A DNA stretch of 64,000 nucleotides from an uncultured Pseudanabaenaceae cyanobacterium (GCA_938002085.1 CALLAT010000009.1:75450-139449); one strand, 5' to 3'. Counted from the first letter of the stretch, positions 18,560-39,885 are shown. Numbers and translations: made by a program. Notes: a model not told the origin generated them from the sequence alone.

Positions 18560-18928
18560 TTATTTTTGAGACACCACTAGAATCACACCGCTGATAATCA
18601 ATCCCAGTCCCACTAAACGCCCTAGGGGAATTGTTTCTTTAAAGACGAAATAGCTTAATAAAACTGAAAACACGTACACCAGCGACACCGATGGTCCTGC
18701 AATGCTCAAAGGCACTCGCGACAGCAACAAAATATAGGCTATGGCGCCCAAGCCATAACAGCCTAAACCGAGCATGAGTTCGGGAATTTTGATGGCCTCA
18801 ACGACCGTCGCGAGGGAGACCTGCTTCAATAAAGGAGCTAGTTTATCAGCCCCCAATTTCAGGAATAACTGTCCTCCCACGCTACTCAAAACAGAAAGCA
18901 ACAGAAAGCACAGTTCGATAGGATTCAT
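18560..18928 (-). CDS. Small 4-TM EamA/SMR-like membrane protein (ArnE/ArnF-like undecaprenyl-phosphate-sugar flippase subunit)
   Basis: 122 aa with four hydrophobic helices. Adjacent to and co-oriented with a GT2 polyprenol-phosphate glycosyltransferase, mirroring arnC-arnE/F and gtrB-gtrA pairs. Confidence 0.6.
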   Translation of the reverse strand: MNPIELCFLLLSVLSSVGGQLFLKLGADKLAPLLKQVSLATVVEAIKIPELMLGLGCYGLGAIAYILLLSRVPLSIAGPSVSLVYVFSVLLSYFVFKETIPLGRLVGLGLIISGVILVVSQK

Positions 18929-19129
18929 TCTTAAAATGCCAGGACATTAGCGGAGGTCAGTTTTCCCATACTCAATCCCATTCAGCACCACCTACCGGCA
19001 ATCAAGCCATAGGAGCAAACAGCTGGGAACCCGCAAAGCAGTGAAAGGTACAAGTCGCGAGAATTTCTGCTTGTCAGTTGGCTCTGCATCTGAACAAAGC
19101 GTGCGAAACTGACGAGCGAGCTTTTAGCG

Positions 19130-19882
19130 TTAGCGGTGCCGGGGGAGCGCAGGCTGGGGCAGCGGAATGGAAATGGTTTTCCAAGGCTTGACCCGAGCGA
19201 ATAAGTTGTACTTTAAGATACAAATAATAGCCCTTACGCCATCGCGCCAGCCAATTTTCTTTCCTTCCTGGTAAGTGCGACCATAATAGGAAATACCCAC
19301 CTCATAAATGCGGCAGCCCATCTTCGCGACCTTGGCGGTTATTTCTGGCTCAAAACCAAAGCGATTTTCTTCAATCTCTACTGCTTGAATCACCTCCCGG
19401 CGGAAGGCTTTGTAGCAGGTTTCCATATCTGTCAAATTGATGTTAGTCATCATGTTAGACAGCATTGTTAAAAAACGATTGCCCAGCATGTGCCAGTAAT
19501 AGACCACCCGATGGGGCTCGCCCCCCATGAATCGCGATCCGAACACCACATCTGCCTTGCCATTCTCAATGGGAGCAATTACGCGGGGAAATTCCTGGGG
19601 GTCATATTCCAAGTCCGCATCTTGAATGATGACAATATCTCCCGTTGCCGCCGCAAAACCACTGCGCAGTGCAGCACCTTTGCCCTGGTTACGGCGATGG
19701 AGAATCGCTTGATCGACTTGATCGCGCAGGGGACCTTGCAACAGCTCCCGCGTTCCATCCGTAGAGCCGTCATCAACAATGATAATTTCGCACTGCTTCA
19801 CTGGTGAAGCTTGAACCGCAGCAATGACGGTTTCGATTGTTTGAACCTCGTTGTAACAAGGAATAACCACCGACAATTTCAT
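19130..19882 (-). CDS. GT2 polyprenol-phosphate glycosyltransferase (DPM1/ArnC/GtrB-like)
   Basis: [12 protein letters not shown]...[12 protein letters not shown]...[11 protein letters not shown] motifs (DxD/DAD) typical of dolichyl/undecaprenyl-phosphate sugar synthases. Start chosen at the internal ATG (MKLS), because the longer ORF adds a non-conserved 27-aa leader. Confidence 0.85.
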
Positions 19883-20227
19883 GCTCTGGGCACTCCCGAA
19901 AATAGATACATTGTCCCCAATTAGTGAAGTAAAACCAGTTCCACTGGCACCGCCTTCACTCAAGTTGTAGCCTCAACCTGATAAATGACTTGAGACTGTG
20001 ATGTTGCTTCAAACCCTACCTCTTTTCTCGCAGCAGTACTAGCGTTTGTTCTCTCGTTGGATGTTCGCTGAACTGTTGTGCAAGCTGGAGACTGTGATGC
20101 CAGGCGCCTCAGCGAGAGTAGACTCCATTATGTTCTGACTATATAGAGGCTCGAGCAGTCAACCAAAATTTAGGCTCTTCTCCATTTAAGGAGATAACAC
20201 CCATAATCTTAAGGCGTACCTAGGGAA

Positions 20228-22537
20228 TTAGTTTTGGCTCCCGTTTTCTGAAAGCTCAACTCTTCGGAGGGCAACGCCAAGCCTCCTATCATCTTCAGAT
20301 AGAGATTGTGATGCCGGCGAAGTTGCATTAGGCACTTCAATTCTCACATTTATATATTGTTGCTTTAGATCATTCTTTGATAATGAGAGTGAATAGTTAC
20401 TAGCCTCACTATTCGTTACGCTGATGGTGCGTACGAGACGGTCATTGAGGTAGAGATAGATATCCTGTGGAGCATCCTCTGAAGCAGCATAGGTGCTCAT
20501 AATAAGCTCTAAATTTGCACTTTTGGCGTGCTCTGAGAAATACCGAGCAGGAAGTAACTGCAAATTTGCGCTAGGCCCAGACCAAACAAATGTTTCATCT
20601 AATCCTTGCCAACCCTGATCCAAAACAGATGCTATCTCCATTCGAGAAGCACAACTTTCTCCGACTTGAATGGCTGTTTCCTTCGAGTTTAAGCCGTCTT
20701 TCTTTTTCTTCGTCTCTCCAGTCGTTTGATGGAGGGTCACAACTGAATACAAGTCCTTCTCAACAACTTGATAGTTTGAGAGATTCCTTAGTGCAGAAAT
20801 AGAAGAACTAAATGCTTGTTTTTGCTTTTCTACATGTAGTTGCTTCTCATCCCAATAATGTGCACCTTTAAGCGTATCCATATAAGTCAATACGACTGCA
20901 TCAGCTGTCTGATTCTGTAAAATCGCTCCGACTCGCTCTGTAAGACATTCTCCTGCCCCCCCAAAAGGAAGTGTTCTCAAGAGATAAGGCCATGTTTCAC
21001 GAGCTTTCTCAAAATTCTTGTCTCCTCCTATGTTATATGTTTGGTATCCTCCCGTAGAAGCAATGTAGTTCACTATAAAATCATTGTAAATAGGTAAAAA
21101 AACGACCTTGTTCTCGGCATTAAAAATTTGGGAAAGGTAAGAGAAGCTAGAATCAACCTCCATTATCTCCTCCCTAAATCGGATTCCTGTCCATATCCTA
21201 GATGTGGGATTAGGGCAATTCCCAGCAATCAGTAAAGAAGTTAGGAATAAGGATATTAACTTATCTTTCCTTGTATGCTTTTCCTCTAACTCAAGAAATA
21301 GCAATACTGTTATGCCAAAAAATCCTGTAAACATTAATCCAGACCAGCGGTATGATGCTCGCATATTGCGAAACCCTGGCAGAGATCTGGATATAAAGGC
21401 ACTGCCAGTGGGGGCGATTGCAGCAGATTCTGGCATCACTCCTCCATCAATAATAGGGAGAGCTGATAGCTCTCCTACACGAATAGAGTTGAATTTTAAG
21501 GAAGGACCTAGCGATAAATAGAAGCCTAAGATCGATATTAAGAGTAAAGGTAGTACGAACTTTGACTTTCGCCCTTTTAAAAGTCCGAACCCACTTACAA
21601 GAATAAGAGGTAGAGAAAAAGTTGTCTGCCAAACGGATGCATCACCAAAAAAAAGTTTACCGCTACGTCGAGTACTGATCTGTAGAAAGTCCCACAATGC
21701 TGCAATGCCCTTAGATGGACGGAATAGCATGACTAAATCTATTCCCCATCCACGAAAAGCATCTATGCTGGATGGATTATAGTGAGTTGTACTCAGATAT
21801 GAGGTGTAGACAACGTAGGCAAACAAAAGTGAAATGCAGGCGATTATAAATATTTTGAATTTATGCTTAAATTCCCATTTTCTATCTATCCAAGCTGCAA
21901 GAAAAGTTAGTAAGAAACCAACTGCATGCATCATAAATGTATAGCCATCCATGAAAATAGATAACATGCTGACTAAACTGAATGTTATGAATCCTTTTAT
22001 GCAGCTAGATGAAAAGGAATTACTTTGAGAGCATTCGTAGACTAAATATAGTGATGCATAAATATAAAGTGGAAGCAGCGCAAAGCCAAATGAAACGTAG
22101 GAGTAACCTGCATGGACCCAAACAATAGGTAATGTCAAATAAATGGGAGCCAATGCAGCGCCCATCTTAAATGTCCCTCCCAGCAACTGGCATAGCTTTA
22201 TCGCTCCAAATAGTGATAAAGCCAACCAAAAAATAGCACATACAGAATAAGCATCTGCCGAGTGCAGGCCTAGAAACTGAATTAAGAAGCTTTGAAGGAT
22301 AGTGCTTGGTAGACCCAGAGGGATAGGTGCGGGGATTGGAATACCAAAATTAGTGGCTTTAATTGCAAAACCACCTACATTCGCAAAAGATTCTGCAAAT
22401 CCAGAAGCCCACAAAATTTGGCCTAGTGTAGGAATTGAGATACCAGGAATAGCTCCATAGACAATGACAATAATCGTCAAAGATAGGAAATAGCTAAAGC
22501 CAGAACTCTTGAGTAGTAAATTTTTCTTATCGCTCAT
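20228..22537 (-). CDS. Large polytopic membrane protein (~12+ TM in N-terminal 450 aa plus ~300-aa soluble C-domain), putative GT-C-type glycosyltransferase/polymerase
   Basis: 769 aa. Extremely hydrophobic N-terminal half with multiple Pro/Gly-containing helices. Sits in a low-GC block next to the GT2 polyprenol-P sugar synthase and small flippase. No family assigned with certainty. Confidence 0.5.
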   Translation of the reverse strand: MSDKKNLLLKSSGFSYFLSLTIIVIVYGAIPGISIPTLGQILWASGFAESFANVGGFAIKATNFGIPIPAPIPLGLPSTILQSFLIQFLGLHSADAYSVCAIFWLALSLFGAIKLCQLLGGTFKMGAALAPIYLTLPIVWVHAGYSYVSFGFALLPLYIYASLYLVYECSQSNSFSSSCIKGFITFSLVSMLSIFMDGYTFMMHAVGFLLTFLAAWIDRKWEFKHKFKIFIIACISLLFAYVVYTSYLSTTHYNPSSIDAFRGWGIDLVMLFRPSKGIAALWDFLQISTRRSGKLFFGDASVWQTTFSLPLILVSGFGLLKGRKSKFVLPLLLISILGFYLSLGPSLKFNSIRVGELSALPIIDGGVMPESAAIAPTGSAFISRSLPGFRNMRASYRWSGLMFTGFFGITVLLFLELEEKHTRKDKLISLFLTSLLIAGNCPNPTSRIWTGIRFREEIMEVDSSFSYLSQIFNAENKVVFLPIYNDFIVNYIASTGGYQTYNIGGDKNFEKARETWPYLLRTLPFGGAGECLTERVGAILQNQTADAVVLTYMDTLKGAHYWDEKQLHVEKQKQAFSSSISALRNLSNYQVVEKDLYSVVTLHQTTGETKKKKDGLNSKETAIQVGESCASRMEIASVLDQGWQGLDETFVWSGPSANLQLLPARYFSEHAKSANLELIMSTYAASEDAPQDIYLYLNDRLVRTISVTNSEASNYSLSLSKNDLKQQYINVRIEVPNATSPASQSLSEDDRRLGVALRRVELSENGSQN

Positions 22538-22782
22538 CTAGGATAGGCTCTCTTTTTAGATTCTTTTTTAAGTCAAGCTTGATCAGCATATTCACTTCGA
22601 AGGGAAAGACGAGAAATGCAGATATGCCGATCTTTTAGAAGTTGAAATAGGTTAAAAATTTAGTCGGATAAAATATTTCTTCGTGTATTTTTTTACATAA
22701 TAAAGGTTGGTTTATACTCTAGCTCTCCCTTAAAAAATCTCTTGTAATACCGACGCAGACCTTTGTAAGCATACCGAGATAA

Positions 22783-23775
22783 TTAGCTTCGTTTATACAA
22801 TAAAGATGTCCAGCCTAAGCCTGCATATATTCCAGACATTGCTAAGACAAAAGCATGCATACTCACACCTGCAATCAGAACTTTCTCAGGGTCTAGGCCA
22901 AGTAAAGAGAATCCCATCACCCATCCAGCCTCAAGCGTTCCGACACTACCTAAAGTATTAATGGGTAGGAGTTGTGTCAGACTAGCCAGGCTCGATCCAA
23001 CAATAACCTCTTGCCATGAGACGACTAAGCCTGCAGCACTCAGAAAGAGATTAAATAAACTGAGAAGAGACACCCAAATCAATCCTGAACACATAAATAG
23101 TTGAAAATGCAGTCTTATATCCTTGTATAGGCGTAACTCTTGATAGACCTGGGCTATCAGCTTAGATACCTTTCTAACTAAACGATGAATAGAAGTAGAG
23201 AATATATTCCTCTGACGACGTTTGGCAGTCACTCGCAAATGGAGACTATCTCTATATTTGATGTAGAGGAAGTACAAGATAGAGAATGCCATGAGAGCTA
23301 AAGCGACTTGCCCAACTAAAATCCATGAGATACTTGGCACTTGAAAATTGACTTGAAGCTGCTGACTGAGCTTCCATATACCAACAAGGACACAGCATAA
23401 TAGAAGTAGTGCATCATACAATCTAGCAATAATTAAGCAGGCGAGAGATGACGAGTATTTTGATTTTCCATACTTCTCTAGTAGGAATGGGAAGCTCATC
23501 TCTCCACTGCGCATAGGCAATATGTGGTTGAGGAATTGGTGGATGCATGTCACTCGCAACACCGTAAAAGGATGTGGATTTCCTTGAGTGGAGAGTAAGA
23601 TCTGAAATCGAGTTGCTCTAACCGACTGATTAAAAAAAACTAAGAAGGCAACTAGAAATATATTCTCTAAACTAAAGCTAGTGATGGCTGACTTAAAGCT
23701 TTCTACATCAACTACGACTATTAAAATGACGCAGAGTAGAAGAGTAAAAAAACTAATTCCGAGAAATTGCTTCAC
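22783..23775 (-). CDS. Polytopic membrane protein, lysylphosphatidylglycerol-synthase-TM/flippase-like domain family
   Basis: 330 aa, about 8 TM segments. Composition and layout resemble the flippase-like (LPG_synthase_TM) proteins that accompany GT2 enzymes. Low-GC coding sequence. Confidence 0.45.
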   Translation of the reverse strand: MKQFLGISFFTLLLCVILIVVVDVESFKSAITSFSLENIFLVAFLVFFNQSVRATRFQILLSTQGNPHPFTVLRVTCIHQFLNHILPMRSGEMSFPFLLEKYGKSKYSSSLACLIIARLYDALLLLCCVLVGIWKLSQQLQVNFQVPSISWILVGQVALALMAFSILYFLYIKYRDSLHLRVTAKRRQRNIFSTSIHRLVRKVSKLIAQVYQELRLYKDIRLHFQLFMCSGLIWVSLLSLFNLFLSAAGLVVSWQEVIVGSSLASLTQLLPINTLGSVGTLEAGWVMGFSLLGLDPEKVLIAGVSMHAFVLAMSGIYAGLGWTSLLYKRS

Positions 23776-23867
23776 TGATGCTGTTGGTTTAATATCTCCG
23801 TTGAAAGACTAGCAGAAAAGAGAGCTTGAGATAAAAGGATGGCTCTCAAATAAATCAAAACGGCTAA

Positions 23868-24503
23868 TTACTTAGCACGTAAGAGTAGTACCGTCCAAGG
23901 CAGTGGAGAAGCTACGGCCAAAATGTCAAACTTCTGACTGACAAGATTGATAAATCCTCGCTTTGACCAATGCTGTAGATGAGCAGGGCAGTTACCCCAG
24001 GAGGTTATATAGGCACCTCTGGCGAAGTTCATTGCCCTAAAAATAGGCTCCCTTGGCACACTGAGCAGGGCATAAGGTTTGGCTGCGGTATGCAAATTGT
24101 TGAGTCCTTGAATAGGATCCTCTAAATGCTCTAGCACTTCACAACAAACAACCATTTCAGCTTCTTTAGAGTCGTGCGAAAGGGTGTATATGCTTTGCTT
24201 CTTAAAAACAACTCGCTTGGAGTCTACATTTTGCTTGGCTTCTTGAATAATGGCGTCAGAGATATCTAATGCTTCGATTTCTGCAGAAGAATTCTGCAAA
24301 ATAATCTGGGTGATATGTCCTTCTCCACAGCCAACCTCTAACACATCAGTCGGCTGAATCTCTCTGATGAAGGATGCAATGGTTTTGTCAAAATTACTAA
24401 GGAGTAAACGCCCAATTGGGTTGCGAGTTTTATACTTGACTCCAGAGCCAACTACCACACTACCTTCAAATTTGAATGGGCTCTTTTTATAAGTGCTGCT
24501 CAT
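23868..24503 (-). CDS. Class I SAM-dependent methyltransferase
   Basis: 211 aa. Motif I VLEVGCGEGHIT, motif post-I EALDISD, acidic motif II CCEVLEHL. Confidence 0.75.
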   Translation of the reverse strand: MSSTYKKSPFKFEGSVVVGSGVKYKTRNPIGRLLLSNFDKTIASFIREIQPTDVLEVGCGEGHITQIILQNSSAEIEALDISDAIIQEAKQNVDSKRVVFKKQSIYTLSHDSKEAEMVVCCEVLEHLEDPIQGLNNLHTAAKPYALLSVPREPIFRAMNFARGAYITSWGNCPAHLQHWSKRGFINLVSQKFDILAVASPLPWTVLLLRAK

Positions 24504-24569
24504 ATTCGTCCAACCTTTTCGAAAAATACTGTCTAAATAGATGAAGAAATAAGTTTTTGTTGTCGTTCT

Positions 24570-25193
24570 CTAGCTATTCCTAGAGGCAGAAACGGGAATA
24601 TTTCCCTTTATTTTTCCGGCCTCAATAGATGACGTCGTAAATTCTGGAGACAGGACAACCATTTGATTCGCACCCAGCAAAAAGCGCCTATAGATAAGAA
24701 TTGGGCAGTCCGCAATTTGGGCTATACGCTGTAAAGATGACCTGTCCAACAGCATTTCATGCTCTTCGCTCGCATGGGCACTGAATAACCCCAGCTTTGC
24801 CCCGACATCATGGACCCATTCCAGGCTTGGGTGGGGGGTTGTTAAGACGATCCGACTCTGGCGATTAGGTTGAAGATAGCGGCATAGGTTTTTCAGAAAT
24901 AGATCGGGTTGAGGCACATGCTCAATAACTGCTAAAGAAACGACTGTATCGAAACTTGTTGGTTTTGGCATTTCCATTTGGAATTTATGCCTGGGGAATC
25001 GATGTCGAGCAATGTTGATTGATTCCTCATCATAGTCAACACCAAAATAAAGCTCGGGATCGACTAATGCTGCAAGAGAACCAGCACCACAGCCAATATC
25101 TAAAATGCGACCTCGTAGAAATGGGCTAATTGCTTTGATACGGCATTCTCTTAAGAAAGGAGACAACAAACCTTCGGCACCTTGATCAGCCAT
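24570..25193 (-). CDS. Class I SAM-dependent methyltransferase
   Basis: 207 aa. ILDIGCGAGSLAALV motif I, VDYDEESI, LAVIEHVPQP. Confidence 0.75.
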   Translation of the reverse strand: MADQGAEGLLSPFLRECRIKAISPFLRGRILDIGCGAGSLAALVDPELYFGVDYDEESINIARHRFPRHKFQMEMPKPTSFDTVVSLAVIEHVPQPDLFLKNLCRYLQPNRQSRIVLTTPHPSLEWVHDVGAKLGLFSAHASEEHEMLLDRSSLQRIAQIADCPILIYRRFLLGANQMVVLSPEFTTSSIEAGKIKGNIPVSASRNS

Positions 25194-25248: not shown

Positions 25249-26331
25249 TTACAGCTTATGGCTCAATATTGACAGGGTGGCTTCCCCAGTATTCTTCCAG
25301 CTAAAGCGGCTTGCTTGAGCAAGGCCTTGAGTCGCTAGCTGCCTACATAATGCTGCATCCTTTAGTAAGGATTTCATCGCTTGTTCTAGAGCCAGTTGAT
25401 CGGTTAAATCAACCTGTAGTGCTGCCTCTCCCGTTACTTCTGATAGCGCACCTGCATGGCTTGTAATCACTGGTGTCCCACAGGCTAAAGCTTCTAAGAC
25501 TGGCAAGCCAAAGCCTTCCCATGCACTTGGAAAGACAAAGGCGATCGCCTGATTAATCAATCGAGGCAAATCAGCATATGGCACATAGCCCAGGAATTTA
25601 ACTTGCTCTACGACTCCCAGCTCCTTTGCCTGGGCCTTGAGTTTGGGGGTGAAGCGAGGATCTGCAACACCCGCGATCCAGAGCTCACAATCTGAGGATT
25701 TGGGTAATTTGGCAAAGGCGGCGATCGCTTTGTCGATGCCTTTGTAGGGGTCATGGCGACCGATGTAGAGGAAGTAGTTTTTTCGAGGCAGGTCTAAGGG
25801 GTTGAAATGGTCCGCATCGTAGGCCAAGGGAATCGGTGTGATCTTGGATGCAGCTATATTGCCAAAGCGCATGACATCATCTGCTGTGGATTGGGAGTTG
25901 CAGATGATGTGCACGGCTTGGTTCAGAACTTGGGGAACGATGAAACGAAAGTAATTGGTGAGTGGCGATCGCCAGCGGGGAAACCGTAGAGGAATAAAAT
26001 CATGGACCATGACGACGGTGCGGCAGCCTCTCCAAAGTGGCATCTCCGGCACAGGTGAAAAGATGAGTGAGGATTGGTGAGACTTGTAATGGCGAGGAAG
26101 TTCCGTTTGGTTCCACAAGAGGCGGCGAGCATGGCCTTTGGAACCCTGCTCAGGCGTTAGATTGGCCTGGATGGTTTGGGTTTGAAAATTGGGGAAACGC
26201 TGGGGCTGGGCGGTGAGGAGGGTGGGATCGAGTGCTGCAAGATGGGGGACGACGTTCAGGGCATAGGTGCTGATGCCGGTGGGTCGTTCCATCAGCATTG
26301 CTAAGTTGATGAGTAGCCCTGAATCAGTCAT
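25249..26331 (-). CDS. GT4 (GT-B fold) glycosyltransferase
   Basis: 360 aa. C-terminal FVFPSAWEGFGLPVLEALACGTPVITS (E-x7-E motif region) typical of group 1 glycosyltransferases. Confidence 0.85.
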   Translation of the reverse strand: MTDSGLLINLAMLMERPTGISTYALNVVPHLAALDPTLLTAQPQRFPNFQTQTIQANLTPEQGSKGHARRLLWNQTELPRHYKSHQSSLIFSPVPEMPLWRGCRTVVMVHDFIPLRFPRWRSPLTNYFRFIVPQVLNQAVHIICNSQSTADDVMRFGNIAASKITPIPLAYDADHFNPLDLPRKNYFLYIGRHDPYKGIDKAIAAFAKLPKSSDCELWIAGVADPRFTPKLKAQAKELGVVEQVKFLGYVPYADLPRLINQAIAFVFPSAWEGFGLPVLEALACGTPVITSHAGALSEVTGEAALQVDLTDQLALEQAMKSLLKDAALCRQLATQGLAQASRFSWKNTGEATLSILSHKL

Positions 26332-26381
26332 CTCGCTGGATGCTCCTCTGTGACTTTGACTGTGCTGGTGTCAATAGAATC

Positions 26382-28184
26382 CTATTGACCTACCATGGCC
26401 TGAAACTCTGAGTTGCGAGCTAGCAATTCGTCGTAGGTTCCAACATCGGCGATCGCGCCTTCCTTCATCCAGTAGATGCGATCGCAGTTGCGAATCGTAC
26501 TCAAGCGATGGGCAATCACCACCAAGGTCTTTTGGCCAATCAGGCTTTCCATCGCTCGGACAATCTCCCGTTCTGTGCCGTTATCCAGGGCTGCTGTGGC
26601 TTCATCCATCACAACGACTTCTGGATTGTGATAAAGCGCGCGGGCAATGGCAATGCGTTGGCGCTGTCCCCCCGAAATTCTGACCCCCTGCTCGCCCACA
26701 CGGCTATTCAAGCGCATGGGCAAACCTCGAATGAAATCTTCGAGTTGTGCTAGACGCAGAACCTGCCAGACTCGATTGTCATCAATGGTGGAATCTGCCA
26801 GTCCAAAGGCGACATTGCGGCGAATTGTATCGTCTGAGAGATAGACCTGCTGCGGAATATAGCCGACCTGTTGTTGCCAAGCCAACAAATTCTTGTCGAT
26901 GGTTTGTCCGTCAACCAGAATCTGTCCCGCCATGGGTTGGAGCAGTCCCAGTAATAGATCCACTAAGGTGGTTTTGCCTGCTCCGGAAGGTCCTGCTAGG
27001 CCAATGGCTTCACCCCGTTTCAGTTCCAGCGAGACCGAATTCAAAGACAGGCTTTTAGAGTCCGGATAGACATAGCTCACCTGGTCTAAAACAATCGATT
27101 CCTGGAGGCTTCGGGGTTGTATGTAGGCTGGCAAACTCTCGTAGCGCGCTAGAAAGTTCTCGTCTTGGGGAATGGCGGTGATATCGGCGTGAACCGCATC
27201 TAGTGCTTTGCTATAGAAACGGATCGTCGTAACCGCAGCCACAATGCGGTTCAGAGACATCATTAGCCGGAATGCGGCGGCGGCAAACAGGGTGAGCAAT
27301 AAAAGCAATGACCGGGGTCGACGTCCCTGGGTTAAGTCCACCACCAGAACCACAAGCAGACAGACGACGGCGAGGGTTTCGATGAATAGGCGGGGTAGCT
27401 TATTGACGAATTGGATGCGCTGGGTCGCTTGGGTATAGCGCTCAACATGGAACCCATAGCGCTCTAAAAAGTAAGGCTCCCGGCCAAGAACTTTGGTCTC
27501 TTTGATGCTGCCTAGACCCTGGTTGACCCACTGGATCATGCGGCCAATGTGGCGATGTTGGCGGCGGCCCCAGAGCTCAATACGTCGCCGAAAACCGTGA
27601 TAAAACACGAGCATAGCGACCCCCAAAAGCGTGACTGCGATCAATGAGGAGATCGGTTCTGCTGCTAGCAACAGCAGGGAGATGCAGATGGCAATTAAAG
27701 ACTCGGTCAACAAAATCATGACGTCGCGCATGACTTCGTTGAATAAATTGGGGATCTCTACGTTGATATTGCGTAGCAGATCCGCTGTGTTGCGCTTGAG
27801 GTGAAATGGATAAGGCTGCTGTAAGTATTGAGATAAGAGTTGCTGGGAAACTTTGCTTTGCTTGCGGTAGATGAACTGGGTTTGCAGATATCCCAACCAA
27901 GCCAAATAACCGTTTTTGCCAATATAGAGACCCATGAGAGCCACGCAGGCCCATTGCACGAAGGTGCGGTAGTCCTCAAATCCTGCGAAATTATAAGCCC
28001 AGCCCACGACGCCGACTTCGCGCACTGCCTTAGCACTACCGAGCAAGCCCACGAAGGAGGGGATAACGCCCACCCCTAAGGTTTCGACAATCGCACCGAT
28101 GAGGGTGAGCGCAACGATGAATAGGAACTCTAGGCGATCACGACTATCCAGAAGACGATTAATCTTGCGAAATATCTGCACCAC
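26382..28184 (-). CDS. ABC exporter, fused TMD-NBD (MsbA/type I exporter-like)
   Basis: 600 aa. Six N-terminal TM helices. Walker A GPSGAGKTT, signature ISGGQRQRIAIARAL, Walker B VVVMDEATAALD. Confidence 0.9.
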   Translation of the reverse strand: MVQIFRKINRLLDSRDRLEFLFIVALTLIGAIVETLGVGVIPSFVGLLGSAKAVREVGVVGWAYNFAGFEDYRTFVQWACVALMGLYIGKNGYLAWLGYLQTQFIYRKQSKVSQQLLSQYLQQPYPFHLKRNTADLLRNINVEIPNLFNEVMRDVMILLTESLIAICISLLLLAAEPISSLIAVTLLGVAMLVFYHGFRRRIELWGRRQHRHIGRMIQWVNQGLGSIKETKVLGREPYFLERYGFHVERYTQATQRIQFVNKLPRLFIETLAVVCLLVVLVVDLTQGRRPRSLLLLLTLFAAAAFRLMMSLNRIVAAVTTIRFYSKALDAVHADITAIPQDENFLARYESLPAYIQPRSLQESIVLDQVSYVYPDSKSLSLNSVSLELKRGEAIGLAGPSGAGKTTLVDLLLGLLQPMAGQILVDGQTIDKNLLAWQQQVGYIPQQVYLSDDTIRRNVAFGLADSTIDDNRVWQVLRLAQLEDFIRGLPMRLNSRVGEQGVRISGGQRQRIAIARALYHNPEVVVMDEATAALDNGTEREIVRAMESLIGQKTLVVIAHRLSTIRNCDRIYWMKEGAIADVGTYDELLARNSEFQAMVGQ

Positions 28185-28420
28185 GGCGAGCTGTACCCAT
28201 GAGATTTCCTCGGCTCGAAAGCCGCCTCCATCTTACTGATCAACTGTGCAGCCAGAATAGGACGCTGTTGTTGTATCAATAACGACATTTATTGTTGCGA
28301 TAAGTAAAAATAGCTGAGCTGTGGCTGTGCAGTGATCCAGCCAGGTCCATATTTGCTCAACTAGTAATCTCTCCTTCAGGGATATTTGCTGGCTCCTGGG
28401 TGAAGGATGGGGCACTGCAT

Positions 28421-29413
28421 CTATCTTTCCTGGAGATTTCTGCCTTTGGTGGGTAAGCCATCTTGCCAGACCGTCAGGACCTGGGCGGGACGATGGAGTA
28501 ACTTGCGGCGACGGAACCAAGCCAAATTGGGCAGCGCAATCCAACCCAGCATCTTAATTAGCGTCGTGGGCCAAATCCAGCGTCGCCATCTTAATAGTTC
28601 GACCCCGCTGGTCCAGAGCAATTGGCCTGCAAAAGACCAAAACTGGGCATCGTCAAAGCGACTGATTTGAGTGTCTTGTTCCACCTTGGTTAGGGCATAG
28701 CCCAAAACCCAGCTCTCGGGCACCCGATTAAACTTACTTTGGAGCATCTCTAACACCTCTTGGTGCATCGAGACTGCTTGCCCTAGGGTTTTATTCTCCT
28801 CATGGAGGCGGGAGGCGGCTAGGGGCACTGGTAAATAATGGAAGCGCACTTTCTGACCATAGCGAAGCCACAGCTCGTAATCGAGGCAGTAGTGCAGCGA
28901 AACGTTTAAGGCGCCGAGTTGCTCGATCAGTCGTCGACGAAAGAAGACGGCTGGTTGACAGAGAAAACAGGTTTGCTGAAGGCGTCGGTAGCTCCATTTC
29001 TCTGTGGGAAATGGCTCAATAATATGGTCTGCCTCATCGACCCATTTGGCCTGTCCGTAGACTACGTCTACGTCGTCATGGGCATCGAAAAAAGCCTGCA
29101 CCTGCTCGAAGGCTTGGGGATAGTAAAGATCATCGGAGTTGATCCAGGCGATGATATCTCCTTGGGTCATGGCAATGCCCTTGTTGATCGCATCGGCTTG
29201 GCCCTGGTCCGGTTCGGAAATCCAGCGCAGGCGATCGCCATAGCGCTGCAAAATCTCGACTGTGCCGTCACTACTCCCTCCGTCGCACACCACGTAGTCG
29301 AAGGTCACGTTCTGCTGGGCTAGGACACTCAGAATAGTGCGTTCAATAAATTCCCCTTGGCGGAATGAAGGGGTAATTACACTGAACCTCGGAATACTGC
29401 GCTGGGGAGTCAT
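28421..29413 (-). CDS. GT2 glycosyltransferase
   Basis: FSVITPSFRQGEFIERTILSVLAQ...VVCDGGSSDGT...INSDD motifs. Start placed at the internal ATG (MTPQ...) to avoid overlapping the upstream gene's 3' end. Confidence 0.8.
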   Translation of the reverse strand: MTPQRSIPRFSVITPSFRQGEFIERTILSVLAQQNVTFDYVVCDGGSSDGTVEILQRYGDRLRWISEPDQGQADAINKGIAMTQGDIIAWINSDDLYYPQAFEQVQAFFDAHDDVDVVYGQAKWVDEADHIIEPFPTEKWSYRRLQQTCFLCQPAVFFRRRLIEQLGALNVSLHYCLDYELWLRYGQKVRFHYLPVPLAASRLHEENKTLGQAVSMHQEVLEMLQSKFNRVPESWVLGYALTKVEQDTQISRFDDAQFWSFAGQLLWTSGVELLRWRRWIWPTTLIKMLGWIALPNLAWFRRRKLLHRPAQVLTVWQDGLPTKGRNLQER

Positions 29414-29423
29414 TGTGGCCAAG

Positions 29424-30806
29424 CTAGAGCAGGCTCCGGTAAGCCTTAAGAGTTTCTTCTGCGGTTCTGCGCCAGGAGAACTGTGCTGCCTGGGCATATC
29501 CCTTTTCAATCAAGTTTTCCCGTAGGGCTGAACTGTCAATCAGCTGCCAAATCTGCTCTGCTATTTCTGCCGGCACGTTGGGATTAGCATAGAGAGCTGC
29601 ATCTCCGGCGACCTCGGGCAGAGAAGAGACGTTTGAGGTGACGACTGGAGCCCCTAGGGTCATGGCTTCTAAGACAGGTAGTCCAAATCCCTCGTAGAAA
29701 GAGGGGTAGACAAAGACATCCGCTTTGGAATAAAGGGCTTGAACCTGGCGATCACCCAGATAATTTAAGTGATGAATATTGTCACGCCAAGGGGAGCGAG
29801 CGATCGCTTCAAAAATGGGCTCATAGTGCCAGCCCTTCTTGCCAACGAGCAGTAGATCGTGATCCACGCCATGGTCAGACTTGAGGCGATTAAAAGCTTC
29901 CACTAGGTTGTTGATATTCTTGCGAGGCTCGATTGTACTCACGAAGAGTAAAAAAGGCTTCTTCCTATCATAGGAACTTGACTTCGCTAGGTCATCCAGG
30001 ATTCTATCGGTTTCACCGTAGCGAATCGTACGCACCTCACCGGCTGCAGGACGTGAACTGACCCCCACCGGAGTGGCTAGGGGCATCCGTCCAGCTGAGC
30101 CGCCCTGAAAGCCCTCGGCGATCTGAGAGCGTCGAATGTGATTGCCCGCTGCGACCCCAACTTCTTGCCCTAAACCCACCTTCATCTCCAGGGCAGAGGG
30201 AATGGAACAAGCTGCTGGGGCATATTGGCTGGCCAGCGGAGTCACCCAAACTTTATCTGCATCGACCCCCAGGTACTCAACGATGTCTCGCTTGGAACTC
30301 TCAGAAATCGTGATGACTAGGTCCGTCCAGCTGAGACAACGCTCTACCTGGGCTCGATAGGTCTTGACCACATTGTCGACAAACTCGGGATACCGAATGA
30401 AGGTCAAGTCGTAGATATTCATCACGGTTTTGGCCTTACGAGAAGGACAAACCGAATAATTTGTACCGTGAATAATCCCAGCTTGGTCGAAGCGGCGATC
30501 TATATGGGAGGTCAATAAATGCTGCAACGGCGGTGCATTGTAAGCGCCTGCGAGCAATGGGGTGGATAGACGAACCGGTAGGTCCCAAACATGACAGGGA
30601 TGCTTTCCACAGCTCACATTGGGAACCGAAGGCCGACGCATCAACCAGTTCTTCAACCCAGGTTGAAAAAGAGTTTCCACGGTATAGCCAGGCTCGACAG
30701 ACTCGGCCGCGATCGCCTCTAAGGCTCGCACCAAGTTGATTACATAAAGACCGACCCCACTGGGATAGGGGGTCACTGGCGTCACATCAATCAGCGCCTT
30801 TAACAC
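29424..30806 (-). CDS. GT4 glycosyltransferase (two Rossmann-like halves)
   Basis: 460 aa. C-terminal VFVYPSFYEGFGLPVLEAMTLGAPVVTS motif. Confidence 0.8.
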   Translation of the reverse strand: MLKALIDVTPVTPYPSGVGLYVINLVRALEAIAAESVEPGYTVETLFQPGLKNWLMRRPSVPNVSCGKHPCHVWDLPVRLSTPLLAGAYNAPPLQHLLTSHIDRRFDQAGIIHGTNYSVCPSRKAKTVMNIYDLTFIRYPEFVDNVVKTYRAQVERCLSWTDLVITISESSKRDIVEYLGVDADKVWVTPLASQYAPAACSIPSALEMKVGLGQEVGVAAGNHIRRSQIAEGFQGGSAGRMPLATPVGVSSRPAAGEVRTIRYGETDRILDDLAKSSSYDRKKPFLLFVSTIEPRKNINNLVEAFNRLKSDHGVDHDLLLVGKKGWHYEPIFEAIARSPWRDNIHHLNYLGDRQVQALYSKADVFVYPSFYEGFGLPVLEAMTLGAPVVTSNVSSLPEVAGDAALYANPNVPAEIAEQIWQLIDSSALRENLIEKGYAQAAQFSWRRTAEETLKAYRSLL

Positions 30807-30834
30807 AGGGCAATGATTCTCCTAGCGGACAAAC

Positions 30835-31812
30835 TCACTCTTTTGCAGCCTTGAGTTGTTCCATATCGTAGTCCACCATCAGCTCAACTAGTTGTTGGAA
30901 ACTATACTTTGGTTCCCAGCCCATGTCCGTTTTAATCTGAGTCACATCTCCCACGAGCTCAACGGCCTCATTGGGGCGATAAAACTCTGGTGCGACGCTC
31001 ACGTACTTTTCCCAGTCCAAATCTAAGTAGCGAAACGCAAACTCAACCAGCTCCCGAACAGCATAGGTTTGACCACTGGCAATGACGTAGTCCCCAGGGG
31101 TCTCCTGTTGCAGCATCATCCACATGGCTGAGACAACATCTTCCGCATGGCACCAGTCCCGCTTGGCTTCTAAGTTGCCCAAGCGCAGCTCTGAAGCCAA
31201 CCCCAGCTTGATCTGTGCTGCAGTGCGGGTAATCTTGCGAAACACGAATTCCGCACCTCGACGAGGAGACTCGTGGGTGTAGGTAATGCCGCAGCAGGCG
31301 TACAGACCATACTTTTCACGATAGTTGGTCGTCATCCAGTGGGCATAGGCTTTGGCTGTCCCATAGGGATTACGGGGACGGAAGGCAGTCTTCTCTGACT
31401 GGGGAGACTCATCGGGTTGACCAAACACCTCACTACTGGAGGCCTGATAAAAACGGGCTTTAGGCTGGCAGCGTCGAATGGCTTCCAGTAAACGGGATAC
31501 CCCTAAAGCTGTATATTCTGCCGTCAAGGCAGGTTGTGTCCAGGACAGAGGCACGTAGCTTTGAGAAGCGAGGTTGTAGATCTCATCGGGCTGAGTCTCG
31601 GCAATCACATCCATTAAGGAACATTGGTCGAGCAGGTCGCCAGGCACGACATGGACCCGATCCGCAAAATGAGCAATCCGACTCAGGCTTGAGGTACTTG
31701 ACCGCCTCACCAATCCGTAGACTTCGTAGCCTTTCTCAAGCAAGAGCTCGGCCAAATAAGAGCCGTCTTGGCCTGTCAGTCCTGTAATTAAGGCTCGTTT
31801 GGTCACTGACAT
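30835..31812 (-). CDS. gmd: GDP-mannose 4,6-dehydratase
   Basis: KRALITGLTGQDGSYLAELLLEKGYEVYGLVRRSS... with short-chain dehydrogenase YxxxK (YGTAKAYAHW). Strong match to Gmd family by eye. Start at the second ATG (MSVTK). Confidence 0.9.
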   Translation of the reverse strand: MSVTKRALITGLTGQDGSYLAELLLEKGYEVYGLVRRSSTSSLSRIAHFADRVHVVPGDLLDQCSLMDVIAETQPDEIYNLASQSYVPLSWTQPALTAEYTALGVSRLLEAIRRCQPKARFYQASSSEVFGQPDESPQSEKTAFRPRNPYGTAKAYAHWMTTNYREKYGLYACCGITYTHESPRRGAEFVFRKITRTAAQIKLGLASELRLGNLEAKRDWCHAEDVVSAMWMMLQQETPGDYVIASGQTYAVRELVEFAFRYLDLDWEKYVSVAPEFYRPNEAVELVGDVTQIKTDMGWEPKYSFQQLVELMVDYDMEQLKAAKE

Positions 31813-32048
31813 TGGAATAAGTACTAAAGTATTGGTGAGAGAAAGCAAAAGACAACTGCATTTTGCCTGCGGTCAAGGCTTCCCCTGACAACTCAGGATC
31901 AGATTATATGGCTTCAATGTCCAATGATTTAAGTCATTTCAACCTGGATCAATCTTCCTAAATTGTATGCCGTTTCCTTTCAGTGCCTCTGACTCAAACA
32001 TTATGCTTTCCTAGGGGCATGTGGAGGTTGGACGGCAATCGGTTTTCC

Positions 32049-33218
32049 CTAGGGGTCAATGGTGTCCAAGTACTTTTGTTCAATGCTTGCCCAGGTGTAG
32101 TTGGCTTCAACATACTGTTGACCTTGAGCGCCCAGTTGATTTCGAACTTGCGAAGATACCAGTTTCAATATTGCTGCAAGCTCCTCTTTCTCTGAAAACC
32201 ACAGCCCTCCATGGGAGCGATCGCATTGCCCCACTAAGACCGCACAATCCCGATTCACCAACACTGGCTTTTGCAGAGACCAAGCCTCTAAAAGAACAAT
32301 CGAGAGACTCTCGTGGGGAGAAGGCATGACCAACCAGTCACATGCAGCCATGGCATCCCACTTCGTCTGCTCTTCGACATAGCCCAAAGCGATAATGTCT
32401 GGATGGGCTGGAATCTCCATCATCGCCTTGCCCAAAACCACTAGCTTCATCGAAATAGATTGGCTCTCGCGCAGCGCCAAGAAATCTTCAAAAAGTTTGG
32501 AGCAGCCTTTAGATGGATCGACACGGCCGACATAAAGCAAGAACGGACCGTAAATTCCATGGTTCCGGCGAAACGCTTCAGGATGAACGGCGCCAGGAGG
32601 ATTGACAGCCATGCCACAAACGGGGCCATCAAAATCAACGTCTTCGAATTTATTCTGCAAAAATAGCTGCTCTTCTACAGCACTAAAAATGAATCCCTTA
32701 GGCAGCTTAAAAAACTCTTTCCAAATACCGAGATAGATGGGCCATTCATCGTGAGCGAAGGGCACTAAATAACTCTTATGTGCAACCAGCGGCAAGGTGA
32801 AGTAAGTCGTCGCATATAAGTAATTGAAGAAAATAAAAACATCGTACTCGTCTTGATGATTGAGTACATAGTCTTGAAGTCCAGGAGAAATTGGCCCTTG
32901 AGCCTTCATCCATTCTTCTTGGCGAGTAATCGTAGACGTCTCAATGTTTTGTGATACCTCATCGCAAAACAGATTAAACGAAGCAGTTTCCCTTGGCATC
33001 GGAACCGTAAACCGCCGTACCGTCACACCTGAAATCTTTGATTTACCGGGCTTATAGTGATCGGCCCACTCGGAATAATCTAAAGCACAGGTCGTTAAAA
33101 CATCTATATCCCAACAAGAGGCTGCCATATGCTCAGCCACAGCACGGCATAACACTTCAGCCCCGCCATTCACCTCAACGCCATAGCGTTGAATTACAAA
33201 CGCGACTTTTAACTTCAC
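32049..33218 (-). CDS. GT4 glycosyltransferase
   Basis: 389 aa. GGAEV N-terminal motif. C-terminal DWLVMPSPHESLSIVLLEAW region. Confidence 0.8.
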   Translation of the reverse strand: MKLKVAFVIQRYGVEVNGGAEVLCRAVAEHMAASCWDIDVLTTCALDYSEWADHYKPGKSKISGVTVRRFTVPMPRETASFNLFCDEVSQNIETSTITRQEEWMKAQGPISPGLQDYVLNHQDEYDVFIFFNYLYATTYFTLPLVAHKSYLVPFAHDEWPIYLGIWKEFFKLPKGFIFSAVEEQLFLQNKFEDVDFDGPVCGMAVNPPGAVHPEAFRRNHGIYGPFLLYVGRVDPSKGCSKLFEDFLALRESQSISMKLVVLGKAMMEIPAHPDIIALGYVEEQTKWDAMAACDWLVMPSPHESLSIVLLEAWSLQKPVLVNRDCAVLVGQCDRSHGGLWFSEKEELAAILKLVSSQVRNQLGAQGQQYVEANYTWASIEQKYLDTIDP

Positions 33219-34216
33219 TCAATTTCACCTTCAGGACAGCTTCGATATAGGAAAGCAGGTTTCTTTTGCCCGCCTGGGGAAACATTAACTGCTTTCACAA
33301 AAATATATTGTCCAAGATCCTGCTCTCGATGCTTCAATAATTCAGAGTAAATAGGTAGATTTACATCTGCATCGACAGCATTAGCATGAACATCTGCTGT
33401 AAACATTGCCGAAATCTCAAACCCTAAATAAGTTAGTAAAAGGTGAAGCTCGTGCTTGTTGTACTCGCGATTATGCCGACCATAGGGGCCATATCCAGAA
33501 TACGGATCATAGATATTTGTGCCTGATACCATACGCGAAACATTCTCTAGCCGACTCACGTTGGGTGTCGTGAGAATTAGAGTCCCTCCTGGCTTGAGAA
33601 CTCTTTTAATTTTCCGAATGACAGCAGCAGGATCCATCAACAGATGTTCGATGATTTCGCAGCATAATACGAGGTCAAACTGTTCAGATTCGAACGGGAA
33701 AGGCTCTTCTTCAATATTAAAATGGTGAGATGTCAATTCGAGCCGTTGAGGTTCTCCTGCCTCTACAAATGTGACTGCTTGCTTGATCAGTGATTCACAA
33801 TGAGGACCGAAGTAGTTCCCAAATTCTAGATCGAGGTCTGTAAAGCGTTTCAGCAGCATCGTCGTGAAATAAGGGTTCGCACCGAGTTCCAATGCTGTCC
33901 CATTGATGCCTTGAGCCAATCCCCAAGTATAGACAAAACGCCTGAAGTCTTGGCGACAGTAACCTGCCATTTCTTCTTTTGGAGCATCCTCTGGACAAAC
34001 GGACTCCAAAAAACTGAAGAGTTCTTCCTCTGTTAAATTCCCAGGTAGAGGTAAGCCAGGACGTAATGGGAAAAGAGCGTCAGCATTCAGCTTCTCTGGA
34101 CTATTAGAGTTAGCACTGCTTGAATCCTCAAGCGGCTTCTGTTCGGCTGAAAGTGTTGTGTTTAACTTTCGAACTGCTCTTTGGAAATAATTCATGATGT
34201 CCCACTGATAAAGCAA
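33215..34216 (-). CDS. Class I SAM-dependent methyltransferase
   Basis: 333 aa. LELGANPY motif I-like, FDLVLCCEIIEHL, LKPGGTLILTTPN. Confidence 0.7.
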   Translation of the reverse strand: MLYQWDIMNYFQRAVRKLNTTLSAEQKPLEDSSSANSNSPEKLNADALFPLRPGLPLPGNLTEEELFSFLESVCPEDAPKEEMAGYCRQDFRRFVYTWGLAQGINGTALELGANPYFTTMLLKRFTDLDLEFGNYFGPHCESLIKQAVTFVEAGEPQRLELTSHHFNIEEEPFPFESEQFDLVLCCEIIEHLLMDPAAVIRKIKRVLKPGGTLILTTPNVSRLENVSRMVSGTNIYDPYSGYGPYGRHNREYNKHELHLLLTYLGFEISAMFTADVHANAVDADVNLPIYSELLKHREQDLGQYIFVKAVNVSPGGQKKPAFLYRSCPEGEIE

Positions 34217-34234
34217 TCAAATCCGATTGTTTAC

Positions 34235-38406: not shown

Positions 38407-38461
38407 CTGAAATCTAAACCTTGAGTCTACAAAATTAACAACTTTAGAACCGATGAAGCCG

Positions 38462-39847: not shown

Positions 39848-39885
39848 GACGATATCGCTTTACGGTTGATGGCTAAACAAACAAG

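Follow-up and report, generated by a model that had tools for sequence, protein, structure and literature searches.

A low-GC gene cassette for a proposed periplasmic three-component-type glycosylation system in a cyanobacterial polysaccharide locus

The low-GC cassette and its proteins

A stretch of 64,000 nucleotides from an uncultured Pseudanabaenaceae cyanobacterium (GCA_938002085.1 CALLAT010000009.1:75450-139449; hereafter the window) carries on its minus strand a cassette of four genes of low GC content (Table 1). These encode two S-adenosylmethionine (SAM)-dependent methyltransferases, MT207 and MT211, a stand-alone LPG_synthase_TM protein of 330 residues, and a polytopic membrane protein of 769 residues, which we call BIG769. 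The cassette lies between a gene for a family 4 glycosyltransferase (GT4) and a gene for a family 2 glycosyltransferase (GT2_250), the latter followed by a small gene of the EamA type (EamA122). Open reading frames were called on the minus strand and domains were assigned with Pfam and NCBIfam profiles, the scanned locus genes being those between 16.0 and 42.8 kb. We favour, with modest confidence, the reading that genes of two origins here form a three-component-type system of periplasmic glycosylation, inserted in an ATP-binding cassette (ABC)-transporter-dependent polysaccharide locus.

Table 1. Features of the region discussed, in window coordinates
Feature	Coordinates	Strand	Assigned by
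EamA122, 122 aa, four transmembrane segments, EamA/SMR-like (ArnE/F-like), possible flippase partner of GT2_250; outside the cassette	18560-18928	-	EamA 7e-8
GT2_250, 250 aa, GT2, candidate polyprenyl-phosphate sugar synthase; outside the cassette	19130-19882	-	Glycos_transf_2 7e-36
Low-GC four-gene cassette (MT207, MT211, LPG_synthase_TM protein, BIG769)	20228-25193	-	Composition; gene order in loci L083 and L091
BIG769, 769 aa, predicted GT-C-fold glycosyltransferase of an unnamed family	20228-22537	-	AlphaFold2 model and Foldseek
LPG_synthase_TM protein (UPF0104, PplT), 330 aa, stand-alone, proposed flippase of a lipid-linked sugar	22783-23775	-	PF03706 and MprF fold
MT211, 211 aa, class-I SAM-dependent methyltransferase, conserved module component	23868-24503	-	Pfam Methyltransf_12/23/25/31/11, ~1e-13
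MT207, 207 aa, second SAM-dependent methyltransferase, optional module component	24570-25193	-	Pfam Methyltransf_23 2e-16
ABC-transporter-dependent polysaccharide locus, probable source of the acceptor	25249-40758	-	Pfam/NCBIfam

The cassette stands out by its composition. Its GC content of 0.409 is the lowest among all segments of 4966 bp in the 64 kb (mean 0.510, standard deviation 0.038), and in steps of 500 bp the GC content stays at 0.37-0.45 between ~19.75 and 25.25 kb, compared with about 0.50-0.55 in the sequence to either side, with sharp boundaries that coincide with gene borders. The GC content at third codon positions (GC3) of the four genes is 0.35, 0.38, 0.42 and 0.40, a deviation of z -2.9 to -3.9 from the 34 genes outside this and a second low-GC stretch of the window (mean 0.607, standard deviation 0.066). 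GC content at second codon positions is unchanged in the cassette, and both soluble methyltransferase genes are as low as the genes of the membrane proteins; the dip is therefore one of codon usage and not of hydrophobic amino-acid composition. GT2_250 and the EamA gene are host-like, with GC3 values of 0.54 and 0.51.

A first-pass annotation of the window had suspected such an anomaly and had assigned to it a module of four genes, the GT2, EamA-type, 769-residue and LPG-synthase-TM-like genes. All four reading frames are present on the minus strand where it had placed them, and the anomaly is borne out by the calculation of GC and GC3; the dip that had been set at 20.2-24.5 kb is real and extends to ~25.2 kb. 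The equation of the module with the island does not hold. The island consists of MT207, MT211, the LPG_synthase_TM protein and BIG769, the GT2 and EamA genes lie outside it, and both methyltransferase genes, beyond the annotated coordinates but inside the dip, had been overlooked.

The largest protein of the cassette, BIG769, is predicted to be a GT-C-fold glycosyltransferase. It has no significant match in Pfam or NCBIfam, in line with the annotation of a very large polytopic protein with a soluble C-domain that has no obvious match to ArnT or known GtrC families and could be a new transferase or polymerase of the GT-C type. An AlphaFold2 model built with 42 homologues (predicted local distance difference test, pLDDT, 88.6; predicted TM-score 0.86) places ~11 membrane helices, within the 7-13 typical of GT-C enzymes, in residues 2-440, followed by a soluble periplasmic alpha/beta domain (~445-600) and a C-terminal beta-sandwich (~620-765). 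The first external loop spans the 65 residues 28-92 and contains two helices, and other long external loops are found at 249-308 and 343-394. When the model was compared with the Protein Data Bank (PDB) by Foldseek, a search that could have returned a non-glycosyltransferase fold, all of the top ten matches were GT-C glycosyltransferases (E 6e-7 to 1e-4, probability 1.00); they include AglB (three entries), ArnT (two entries), AftA, AftD and human STT3A, with the protein mannosyltransferases (PMT4) lower in the list. The best single match is AglB, an oligosaccharyltransferase. The beta-sandwich resembles carbohydrate-binding modules (CBM) of families CBM35/36/6 and the carbohydrate-binding domain of BcsB.

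By hydropathy and the positive-inside rule, BIG769 begins inside and has its C-terminal domains outside: three of its first ten residues are lysines, and the short loops 219-222 and 322-327 are basic. Invariant in the family are D95 (in HxADAY), H142, D197 (FMDGYTF), D267, D283, R291, D299 (FFGDxSVW), K348, R393, Y396, R397 and the motif NIGGDKN at 502-508 (NxGGxxN; N502-N508), and all invariant polar residues are periplasmic in this topology.

The BIG769 family is broad. Clustered at 50% identity, it numbers 509 representatives at E <= 1e-30, a figure that rises to 886 at E <= 1e-10. Its members come from Proteobacteria, Firmicutes, Chloroflexi, Cyanobacteria, Acidobacteria, Nitrospirae and Verrucomicrobia, and among the carriers are Rhizobium, Pseudomonas, Pantoea, Serratia, Vibrio cholerae and Burkholderia. 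Nearly all members are named 'hypothetical protein'; a few UniRef titles are of a glycosyltransferase type ('4-amino-4-deoxy-L-arabinose transfer...', 'Glycosyltransferase Rg...'). Among 5.8 billion proteins the nearest relative of BIG769, apart from an identical entry and one metagenome fragment, is 42% identical. A Pfam scan of the 42 homologues at E <= 1 returned DUF7024 alone, as a weak C-terminal match in 16 of them (best 3.5e-12), and a literature search found no papers on DUF7024. Comparison of the family with the PDB sequences by phmmer and hmmsearch yielded noise only, and alignment of BIG769 with three cyanobacterial PMT_2-like proteins by hhalign was not significant (probability 0.1).

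The protein encoded directly upstream of BIG769 belongs to the family of the MprF flippase domain, which agrees with its annotation as LPG-synthase-TM-like. It matches PF03706 at 9e-31 (107.9 bits, cut-off 33.4) over profile positions 5-297 of 302, and its AlphaFold2 model (pLDDT 77.8) finds four MprF structures as best PDB matches, with query-normalised TM-scores of 0.53-0.60. The protein stands alone, without the aminoacyl-phosphatidylglycerol synthase domain. MprF flips and scrambles phospholipids.

Conserved gene neighbourhoods and the resident GT2

The proposed function of the cassette draws on the genes that accompany the relatives of BIG769. We searched the open reading frames of 80 genomic loci with BIG769 relatives, from at least eight phyla, counting as partners those genes that share the strand of the large gene and are no more than 4 kb away from it. 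A GT2 of ~305-390 residues is present in 55 loci and a hydrophobic, LPG_synthase_TM-like protein of ~300 residues in 56, or in 64 when either strand is allowed. Homologues of MT211 (38-46% identity) occur in 43 loci, between the GT2 and the flippase-like gene, and homologues of MT207 (48-59% identity) in five, in three of them together with MT211. The exact order GT2-MT211-(300 aa)-BIG is found in 30 of the 80 loci and the order GT2-(300 aa)-BIG in 8, and the flippase-like gene directly precedes the large gene in ~46. The locus of the closest relative of BIG769 (L091) reads GT2(324)-MT189-MT215-(307 aa)-BIG(900), which is the order of the window plus a leading GT2; here the two methyltransferases MT189 and MT215 share 51% identity with MT207 and 46% with MT211, respectively. 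Searched against the PDB, the GT2 of this locus has dolichol-phosphate-mannose synthase (DPMS) and ArnC as its nearest solved relatives, and all five module-type GT2s that we inspected end in two C-terminal hydrophobic or transmembrane segments. The literature search found no paper describing a GT2-methyltransferase-UPF0104-GT-C module; a paper on the Actinoplanes gsf cluster proved unrelated.

Direct homology between the LPG_synthase_TM protein of the window and the ~300-residue proteins of the relatives was sought by tblastn, phmmer, hmmsearch and hhalign, which all failed to detect it; the two are linked only through PF03706, matched by 24 of 38 of these proteins (best 6e-17).

The supply genes are also found beside other large proteins. 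In Gloeocapsopsis and Chroococcidiopsis (L082 4629-8996; L084 5268-10160), an MT211-like methyltransferase (53-55% identical to MT211), an LPG_synthase_TM protein (40%) and a membrane-anchored GT2 lie beside a membrane protein of 586 or 637 residues that has no Pfam match. The 586- and 637-residue proteins are 59% identical to each other and show no detectable similarity to the BIG769 family by single-sequence hhalign and hmmsearch; they may represent another unclassified transferase family using the same supply genes. The presence of different large proteins beside the same supply genes suggests that these genes are combined with varied large proteins, in the manner of GtrA and GtrB with GtrC. 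In the same Gloeocapsopsis cluster (L082 322-2619), a 765-residue protein without Pfam match, unrelated in sequence to BIG769, is encoded directly upstream of a 258-residue GT2.

The cassette of the window has no leading GT2 of its own, and GT2_250 lies next to it on the same strand, 345 bp from the BIG769 gene. The reading frame of GT2_250 at 19130-19963 would give 277 residues; translation most likely begins at the ATG at 19882 instead, for a protein of 250 residues, because the orthologues (229-256 residues) align from that residue. The protein has no hydrophobic segment and no transmembrane helices. Its nearest PDB sequences are the Pyrococcus DPMS (5mlz, 2e-22), ArnC (~1e-19) and the GtrB sll0501 (3e-10), which is consistent with its annotation as a DPM1/ArnC/GtrB-like GT2; its top NCBIfam matches (AglJ, ArnC, PgfS, Dol-P-hexose transferase and PpgS) all score far below cut-off.

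Sequence comparison identifies GT2_250 as a core cyanobacterial gene, with ~80% identity across the phylum. Orthologues that are 75-92% identical occur in Leptolyngbya, Nostoc, Tolypothrix, Pseudanabaena, Spirulina, Microcoleus and many others. A small SAM-dependent methyltransferase gene typically stands before the orthologue. The gene after it encodes a PMT_2-like GT-C in Leptolyngbya FACHB-261 (L088), inside a wzm/wzt cluster, and in a Synechococcales metagenome-assembled genome (L094), and an EamA-like protein in Tolypothrix (L089). These neighbourhoods fit the role of a resident polyprenyl-phosphate-sugar synthase that feeds GT-C enzymes. They belong to a seemingly uncharacterised, phylum-wide module in which a small SAM-dependent methyltransferase (186-238 residues) and a GT2 lacking transmembrane helices (229-256 residues) are followed by either a PMT_2-like GT-C protein (630-690 residues) or an EamA-like protein with four transmembrane segments (L089 6430-8330; L088 7001-9827; L094 5268-8702; L093 3279-6690; window 18560-19882). 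The window holds only the GT2 and EamA parts of this module.

EamA122 has four hydrophobic segments and is related to ArnF (1.6e-10; 41.4 bits, cut-off 99) and ArnE (1.1e-9; 38.5 bits, cut-off 92). It is 63% identical to the protein encoded after the Tolypothrix GT2 orthologue and 58% identical to a Gloeocapsopsis protein encoded beside a GT4 orthologue. The first-pass annotation had taken it for the flippase of the module. Its nature as an EamA-type protein is confirmed, and its proposed role is not: phmmer at E <= 1e-5 detected no EamA122 relative in any of the 80 loci, and in 56 of them the flippase-type partner is an LPG_synthase_TM-like protein.

It is plausible that GT2_250 serves as the donor synthase of the cassette. 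It is the only gene of the window matched by module-type GT2s (30-37% identity), and no remnant of a module-type GT2 was found in the window besides it. Alternatively, the cassette may be independent of GT2_250 and EamA122 and be supplied by a membrane-anchored GT2 whose gene lies at another place in the genome, or draw on a donor that the cell already makes, a possibility that we find doubtful on the whole and nonetheless serious. It would account for the strong conservation of GT2_250 in unrelated contexts (e.g. L086), for its host-like composition, for its distance from the module-type GT2s with their membrane anchor, and for the fact that its orthologues have a small upstream methyltransferase and a PMT_2-like GT-C or EamA partner of their own. 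Set against this are the dedicated GT2s beside the large protein in 55 of the 80 loci, in whose place the window offers GT2_250 alone, and the end of the cassette only 345 bp upstream of GT2_250 on the same strand. We therefore retain the reading in which the cassette would use the resident synthase.

Setting of the cassette in the polysaccharide locus

The locus that adjoins the cassette encodes a GT4 (GT4_360, 25249-26331), a PglK/MsbA-like ABC exporter, a GT2, a GT4, a GDP-mannose 4,6-dehydratase, a further GT4, a methyltransferase, a double GT4, a 577-residue methyltransferase protein, Wzt with a Wzt_C domain (1.7e-22) and Wzm (ABC2_membrane 1.7e-16). The exporter at 26382-28184 is a half-transporter of the PglK/MsbA/HepA type whose best NCBIfam match, PglK at 1.3e-93, is below cut-off; together with the Wzm/Wzt pair it may provide the cluster with two ways of exporting lipid-linked glycans. 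The 577-residue protein has a C-terminal methyltransferase domain and is possibly a WbdD-like chain terminator.

GT4_360 and GT2_250 directly flank the four low-GC genes. Tolypothrix PCC 7101 has a cluster with orthologues of GT2_250 (77%), EamA122 (63%), GT4_460 and GT4_360 (56%), and in Gloeocapsopsis those of EamA122 (58%) and GT4_360 (54%) are adjacent. Since the GT2, EamA and GT4 genes are neighbours in other cyanobacteria, the cassette would have been inserted into that neighbourhood. The flanking genes have cyanobacterial orthologues with identities of 54-92%, whereas the nearest relatives of BIG769 reach only 42% and are mainly non-cyanobacterial. The cassette thus looks imported into a conserved cyanobacterial polysaccharide locus, import being favoured by the break in synteny and by the low identity of the nearest relative. 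On a metagenome contig (L083) the order GT4-MT207-MT211-LPG_synthase_TM-BIG is kept, with amino-acid identities of 84-97% (85-97% for the four cassette genes).

The low GC content could instead be the usual oddity of surface-polysaccharide loci, uninformative on origin, with no separate acquisition of the cassette; we regard this as unlikely. It gains some support from the second low-GC stretch of the same locus at 32-40 kb, which takes in the gene for Wzt together with the GT4 and methyltransferase genes located upstream, from the module genes of L091, which are likewise lower in GC than their neighbour gene, and from the island borders, at which no meaningful direct or inverted repeats and no tRNA or mobility genes were found. 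It leaves unexplained the sharp borders at the edges of genes that adjoin in Gloeocapsopsis (GT4_360 and EamA) or cluster in Tolypothrix (GT2, EamA and GT4), as well as the difference in identity and phylogenetic range between BIG769 and the flanking proteins. Import of the cassette remains the reading that we prefer.

The polysaccharide locus is compositionally mosaic. Its second low-GC stretch extends over 32049-39847 (GC3 0.37-0.48) and comprises GT4_389, MT333, the 813-residue double GT4, the 577-residue protein and Wzt with its Wzt_C domain. A 15-nt motif, CTTGAGACTGTGATG, is present in three copies (80-100% identity) at 19989-20313, in and beside the 345-bp gap between the BIG769 gene and GT2_250, and may be due to chance. 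The scan for promoters and terminators gave results at or near the shuffled expectation and was uninformative, and no annotated plasmid homologues of BIG769 were found.

Proposed pathway, known systems and significance

We propose the following series of steps. At the cytoplasmic face, a GT2 of the DPMS/ArnC/GtrB type would move a sugar from its nucleotide-activated form onto undecaprenyl (polyprenyl) phosphate. The membrane-anchored GT2 of the cassette itself would have been lost or never present, which would leave only the adjacent GT2_250 as a candidate within the window. The lipid-linked sugar would then be O-methylated prior to export by MT211, joined here by MT207. The methyltransferase genes lie between those of synthase and flippase in the conserved order, and methylation at this stage would parallel ArnD, GpgD and HexD; these enzymes modify a lipid-linked sugar between its synthesis and its flipping (PMC12713373). 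The stand-alone MprF-type protein would flip the lipid-phosphate-sugar to the periplasmic leaflet, and the EamA/ArnE-like protein encoded beside GT2_250 may flip it too. Finally, BIG769 would transfer the sugar to a periplasmic glycan bound via its alpha/beta and CBM-like domains, the most likely acceptor being the polysaccharide of the surrounding Wzm/Wzt locus. BIG769 may use a polyprenyl-phosphate donor, as gene context suggests: a DPMS/ArnC/GtrB-type GT2 lies beside 55 of its 80 relatives.

In its most specific form this proposal makes GT2-MT(-MT)-UPF0104-GT-C a four-step pathway. One or two O-methyl groups would be added to undecaprenyl-phosphate-sugar at the cytoplasmic face, an MprF-type protein would flip this polyprenyl-phosphate-sugar in place of a phospholipid, and a GT-C family so far absent from CAZy would transfer the pre-methylated residue to a periplasmic glycan, the imported cassette using a resident, phylum-wide synthase. 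In this full form we advance it only tentatively.

Several observations weigh against the proposal. With respect to BIG769, the cross-family TM-scores are modest (0.33-0.51), which in our own judgement is within the range of 0.3-0.5 expected between different GT-C families, and its GT-C status follows from the predicted fold; no sequence link to a known GT-C family was found in Pfam or NCBIfam or by hhalign with the cyanobacterial PMT_2-like proteins. PglB, ArnT and PMT have a catalytic Asp or Glu just after the first transmembrane helix. This usual residue appears to be absent in BIG769, whose first external loop holds no invariant or near-invariant acidic residue, none that is invariant being present at positions 28-94; the first is D95, at the boundary of the loop and the second helix, and the further invariant acids D197, D267, D283 and D299 sit in other periplasmic loops. 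With respect to the supply genes, GT2_250 is a core gene of different composition that lacks the anchor of the module-type GT2s, and it may serve another pathway. Methylation is dispensable for the system, since eight of the 80 loci lack a methyltransferase, and the substrate of the methyltransferases, which we take to be the lipid-linked sugar, could also be the finished glycan or a nucleotide sugar. Eighteen of the 80 loci have no detected same-strand partner within 4 kb at all. Flippase activity has been shown by experiment only for MprF, and for stand-alone UPF0104 proteins such as GpgF it is a prediction (PMC12713373).

BIG769 might also be a processive, chain-building enzyme like Emb, AftD and MptA, one that builds an oligo- or polysaccharide branch instead of adding a single residue. 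AftA and AftD are among its best fold matches, a CBM-like C-terminal domain is likewise present in Emb and AftD (PMC11127046), and its periplasmic alpha/beta domain, with the invariant NxGGxxN motif, is large and strongly conserved. The same layout of GT-C and CBM is nevertheless found in GT136 ORF12, a GT-C that decorates with single residues, and many members of the family, of ~600 residues, do without the CBM-like domain. The sequence does not discriminate chain building from single addition, and we consider the former distinctly unlikely. Very unlikely is a system whose GT2, methyltransferase and MprF-type genes yield a methylated, flipped glycolipid as end product, with the 769-residue protein acting as a protein O- or N-glycosyltransferase or in a non-glycosyltransferase role: characterised UPF0104-containing operons do produce membrane glycolipids (PMC12713373), MprF both flips and scrambles phospholipids and the best fold match is an oligosaccharyltransferase, but the flippase-like gene stands in a tight, fixed order with the large gene, directly before it in ~46 of the 80 loci, the GT2 partners are of the polyprenyl-phosphate-using DPMS/ArnC/GtrB type and not of the GT4 type of GpgS, and the CBM-like domain and the polysaccharide locus point to a glycan acceptor.

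The proposed glycosylation of a periplasmic glycan follows the logic of known three-component systems. In Gtr, which glucosylates O-antigen, GtrA is the flippase, GtrB the undecaprenyl-phosphate-glucose synthase and GtrC a serotype-specific GT-C; CsbB, GtcA and YfhO form the Gram-positive counterpart. As in these systems, a GT2 of the DPMS/GtrB type is combined with a proposed flippase and a polytopic GT-C-fold enzyme acting on a finished glycan outside the cytoplasm, and, as in the case of GtrC, the supply genes recur with non-homologous large transferases, namely in the methyltransferase-LPG_synthase_TM-GT2 set of the Chroococcidiopsidales. In contrast to Gtr, the flippase partner of the module is of the MprF type with 8-10 helices, no GtrA match in Pfam being found among the locus proteins, and one or two SAM-dependent methyltransferases lie between synthase and flippase. 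The large protein shows no sequence similarity to the GtrC, YfhO and PMT_2 models, and GT2_250, unlike GtrB, lacks the two transmembrane helices and matches the GtrB sll0501 only at 3e-10.

The Arn system, which attaches aminoarabinose to lipid A, offers a parallel for the order of events: synthesis (ArnC), modification on the carrier (ArnD), flipping (ArnE/F, SMR-like with four transmembrane segments) and transfer by a GT-C (ArnT), and the solved structures nearest to the GT2 and to the large protein include ArnC and ArnT, respectively. The equivalog scores are far too low for membership (ArnC 85 against 529 bits, and ArnF and ArnE below half of their cut-offs), no ArnT/PMT_2 match was found for the window proteins scanned, and no relatives of ArnA, ArnB or ArnD are among the annotated locus genes between 16.0 and 42.8 kb, the part of the window that was screened. 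Moreover, the carrier-level modifier would be a methyltransferase and not a deformylase, and the likely acceptor a polysaccharide and not lipid A. The parallel to Arn and Gtr drawn in the first-pass annotation thus stands as regards the working logic; membership in either system was considered and rejected on the equivalog scores and the missing components.

An architectural counterpart is GT136 ORF12 of C. youngae, a GT-C with 11 transmembrane helices, a helical periplasmic domain after the first of them and a C-terminal CBM, which decorates an ABC-transporter-dependent O-polysaccharide in a pathway whose Wzt has a carbohydrate-binding domain (Kelly et al. 2024, PMC11127046). The locus of the window is of the same type, and BIG769 is similar in overall architecture (11 transmembrane helices plus CBM), as compared by description. 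GT136 has its catalytic residues D31 and E34 just after the first helix, and its pentofuranose systems employ a phosphoribosyl-pyrophosphate-dependent synthase and a MATE flippase (PMC11127046); the window instead has a GT2 and an MprF-type protein, and D31/E34 have no conserved counterpart in the BIG769 family. For archaea, a UPF0104 protein has been predicted to be the partner of an AglD-like GT2 and a PMT/STT3-like GT-C (Makarova, Galperin, Koonin 2015, PMC5898192). This neighbourhood resembles ours in having UPF0104 as the proposed flippase beside a GT2 and a GT-C-like enzyme, and differs in being a computational prediction of N-glycosylation with a different GT-C (PMC5898192). UPF0104 proteins are also the predicted flippases of the synthase-modifier-flippase operons gpgSDF and hexSDF (PMC12713373), where they likewise follow a lipid-sugar synthase and a cytoplasmic modifying enzyme; those operons, however, make phospholipid or diacylglycerol glycolipids with a GT4 and a deacetylase, and they contain no GT-C (PMC12713373).

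The kind of system proposed here is known, and for its particular composition we found no previous report: the literature search returned none that combines an unnamed GT-C-fold family with an MprF-type flippase partner and embedded methyltransferases. Periplasmic three-component glycosylation is a major source of serotype diversity among bacterial surface glycans and of their variation as phage receptors. To our knowledge, the flippases of the known systems are of the GtrA, SMR or MATE type, and their GT-C enzymes fall into a handful of families. The module is distinguished from these by an uncharacterised GT-C-fold family spread over many phyla, by an MprF-type protein in the position of the flippase and by methyltransferases between synthase and flippase. 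The window would present a clear case of a decoration cassette inserted in a conserved polysaccharide locus, here without a synthase of its own and beside one that is found throughout the phylum.

If the proposal is true, it would define a new CAZy glycosyltransferase family, provide a polyprenyl-sugar substrate for stand-alone UPF0104 proteins and offer a route to methylated side-branch sugars; as far as we know, such sugars are frequent in the polysaccharides of cyanobacteria and rhizobia, and for most of them the genes are yet to be assigned. Should the four-step reading hold in full, bacterial extracytoplasmic glycosylation would gain its first case of methylation on the carrier, and MprF-type flippases their first polyprenyl-phosphate-sugar substrate. 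The module is a good candidate for giving stand-alone UPF0104 proteins a substrate class, and BIG769 and its relatives for founding a glycosyltransferase family; the finding leaves the current understanding of such systems standing.

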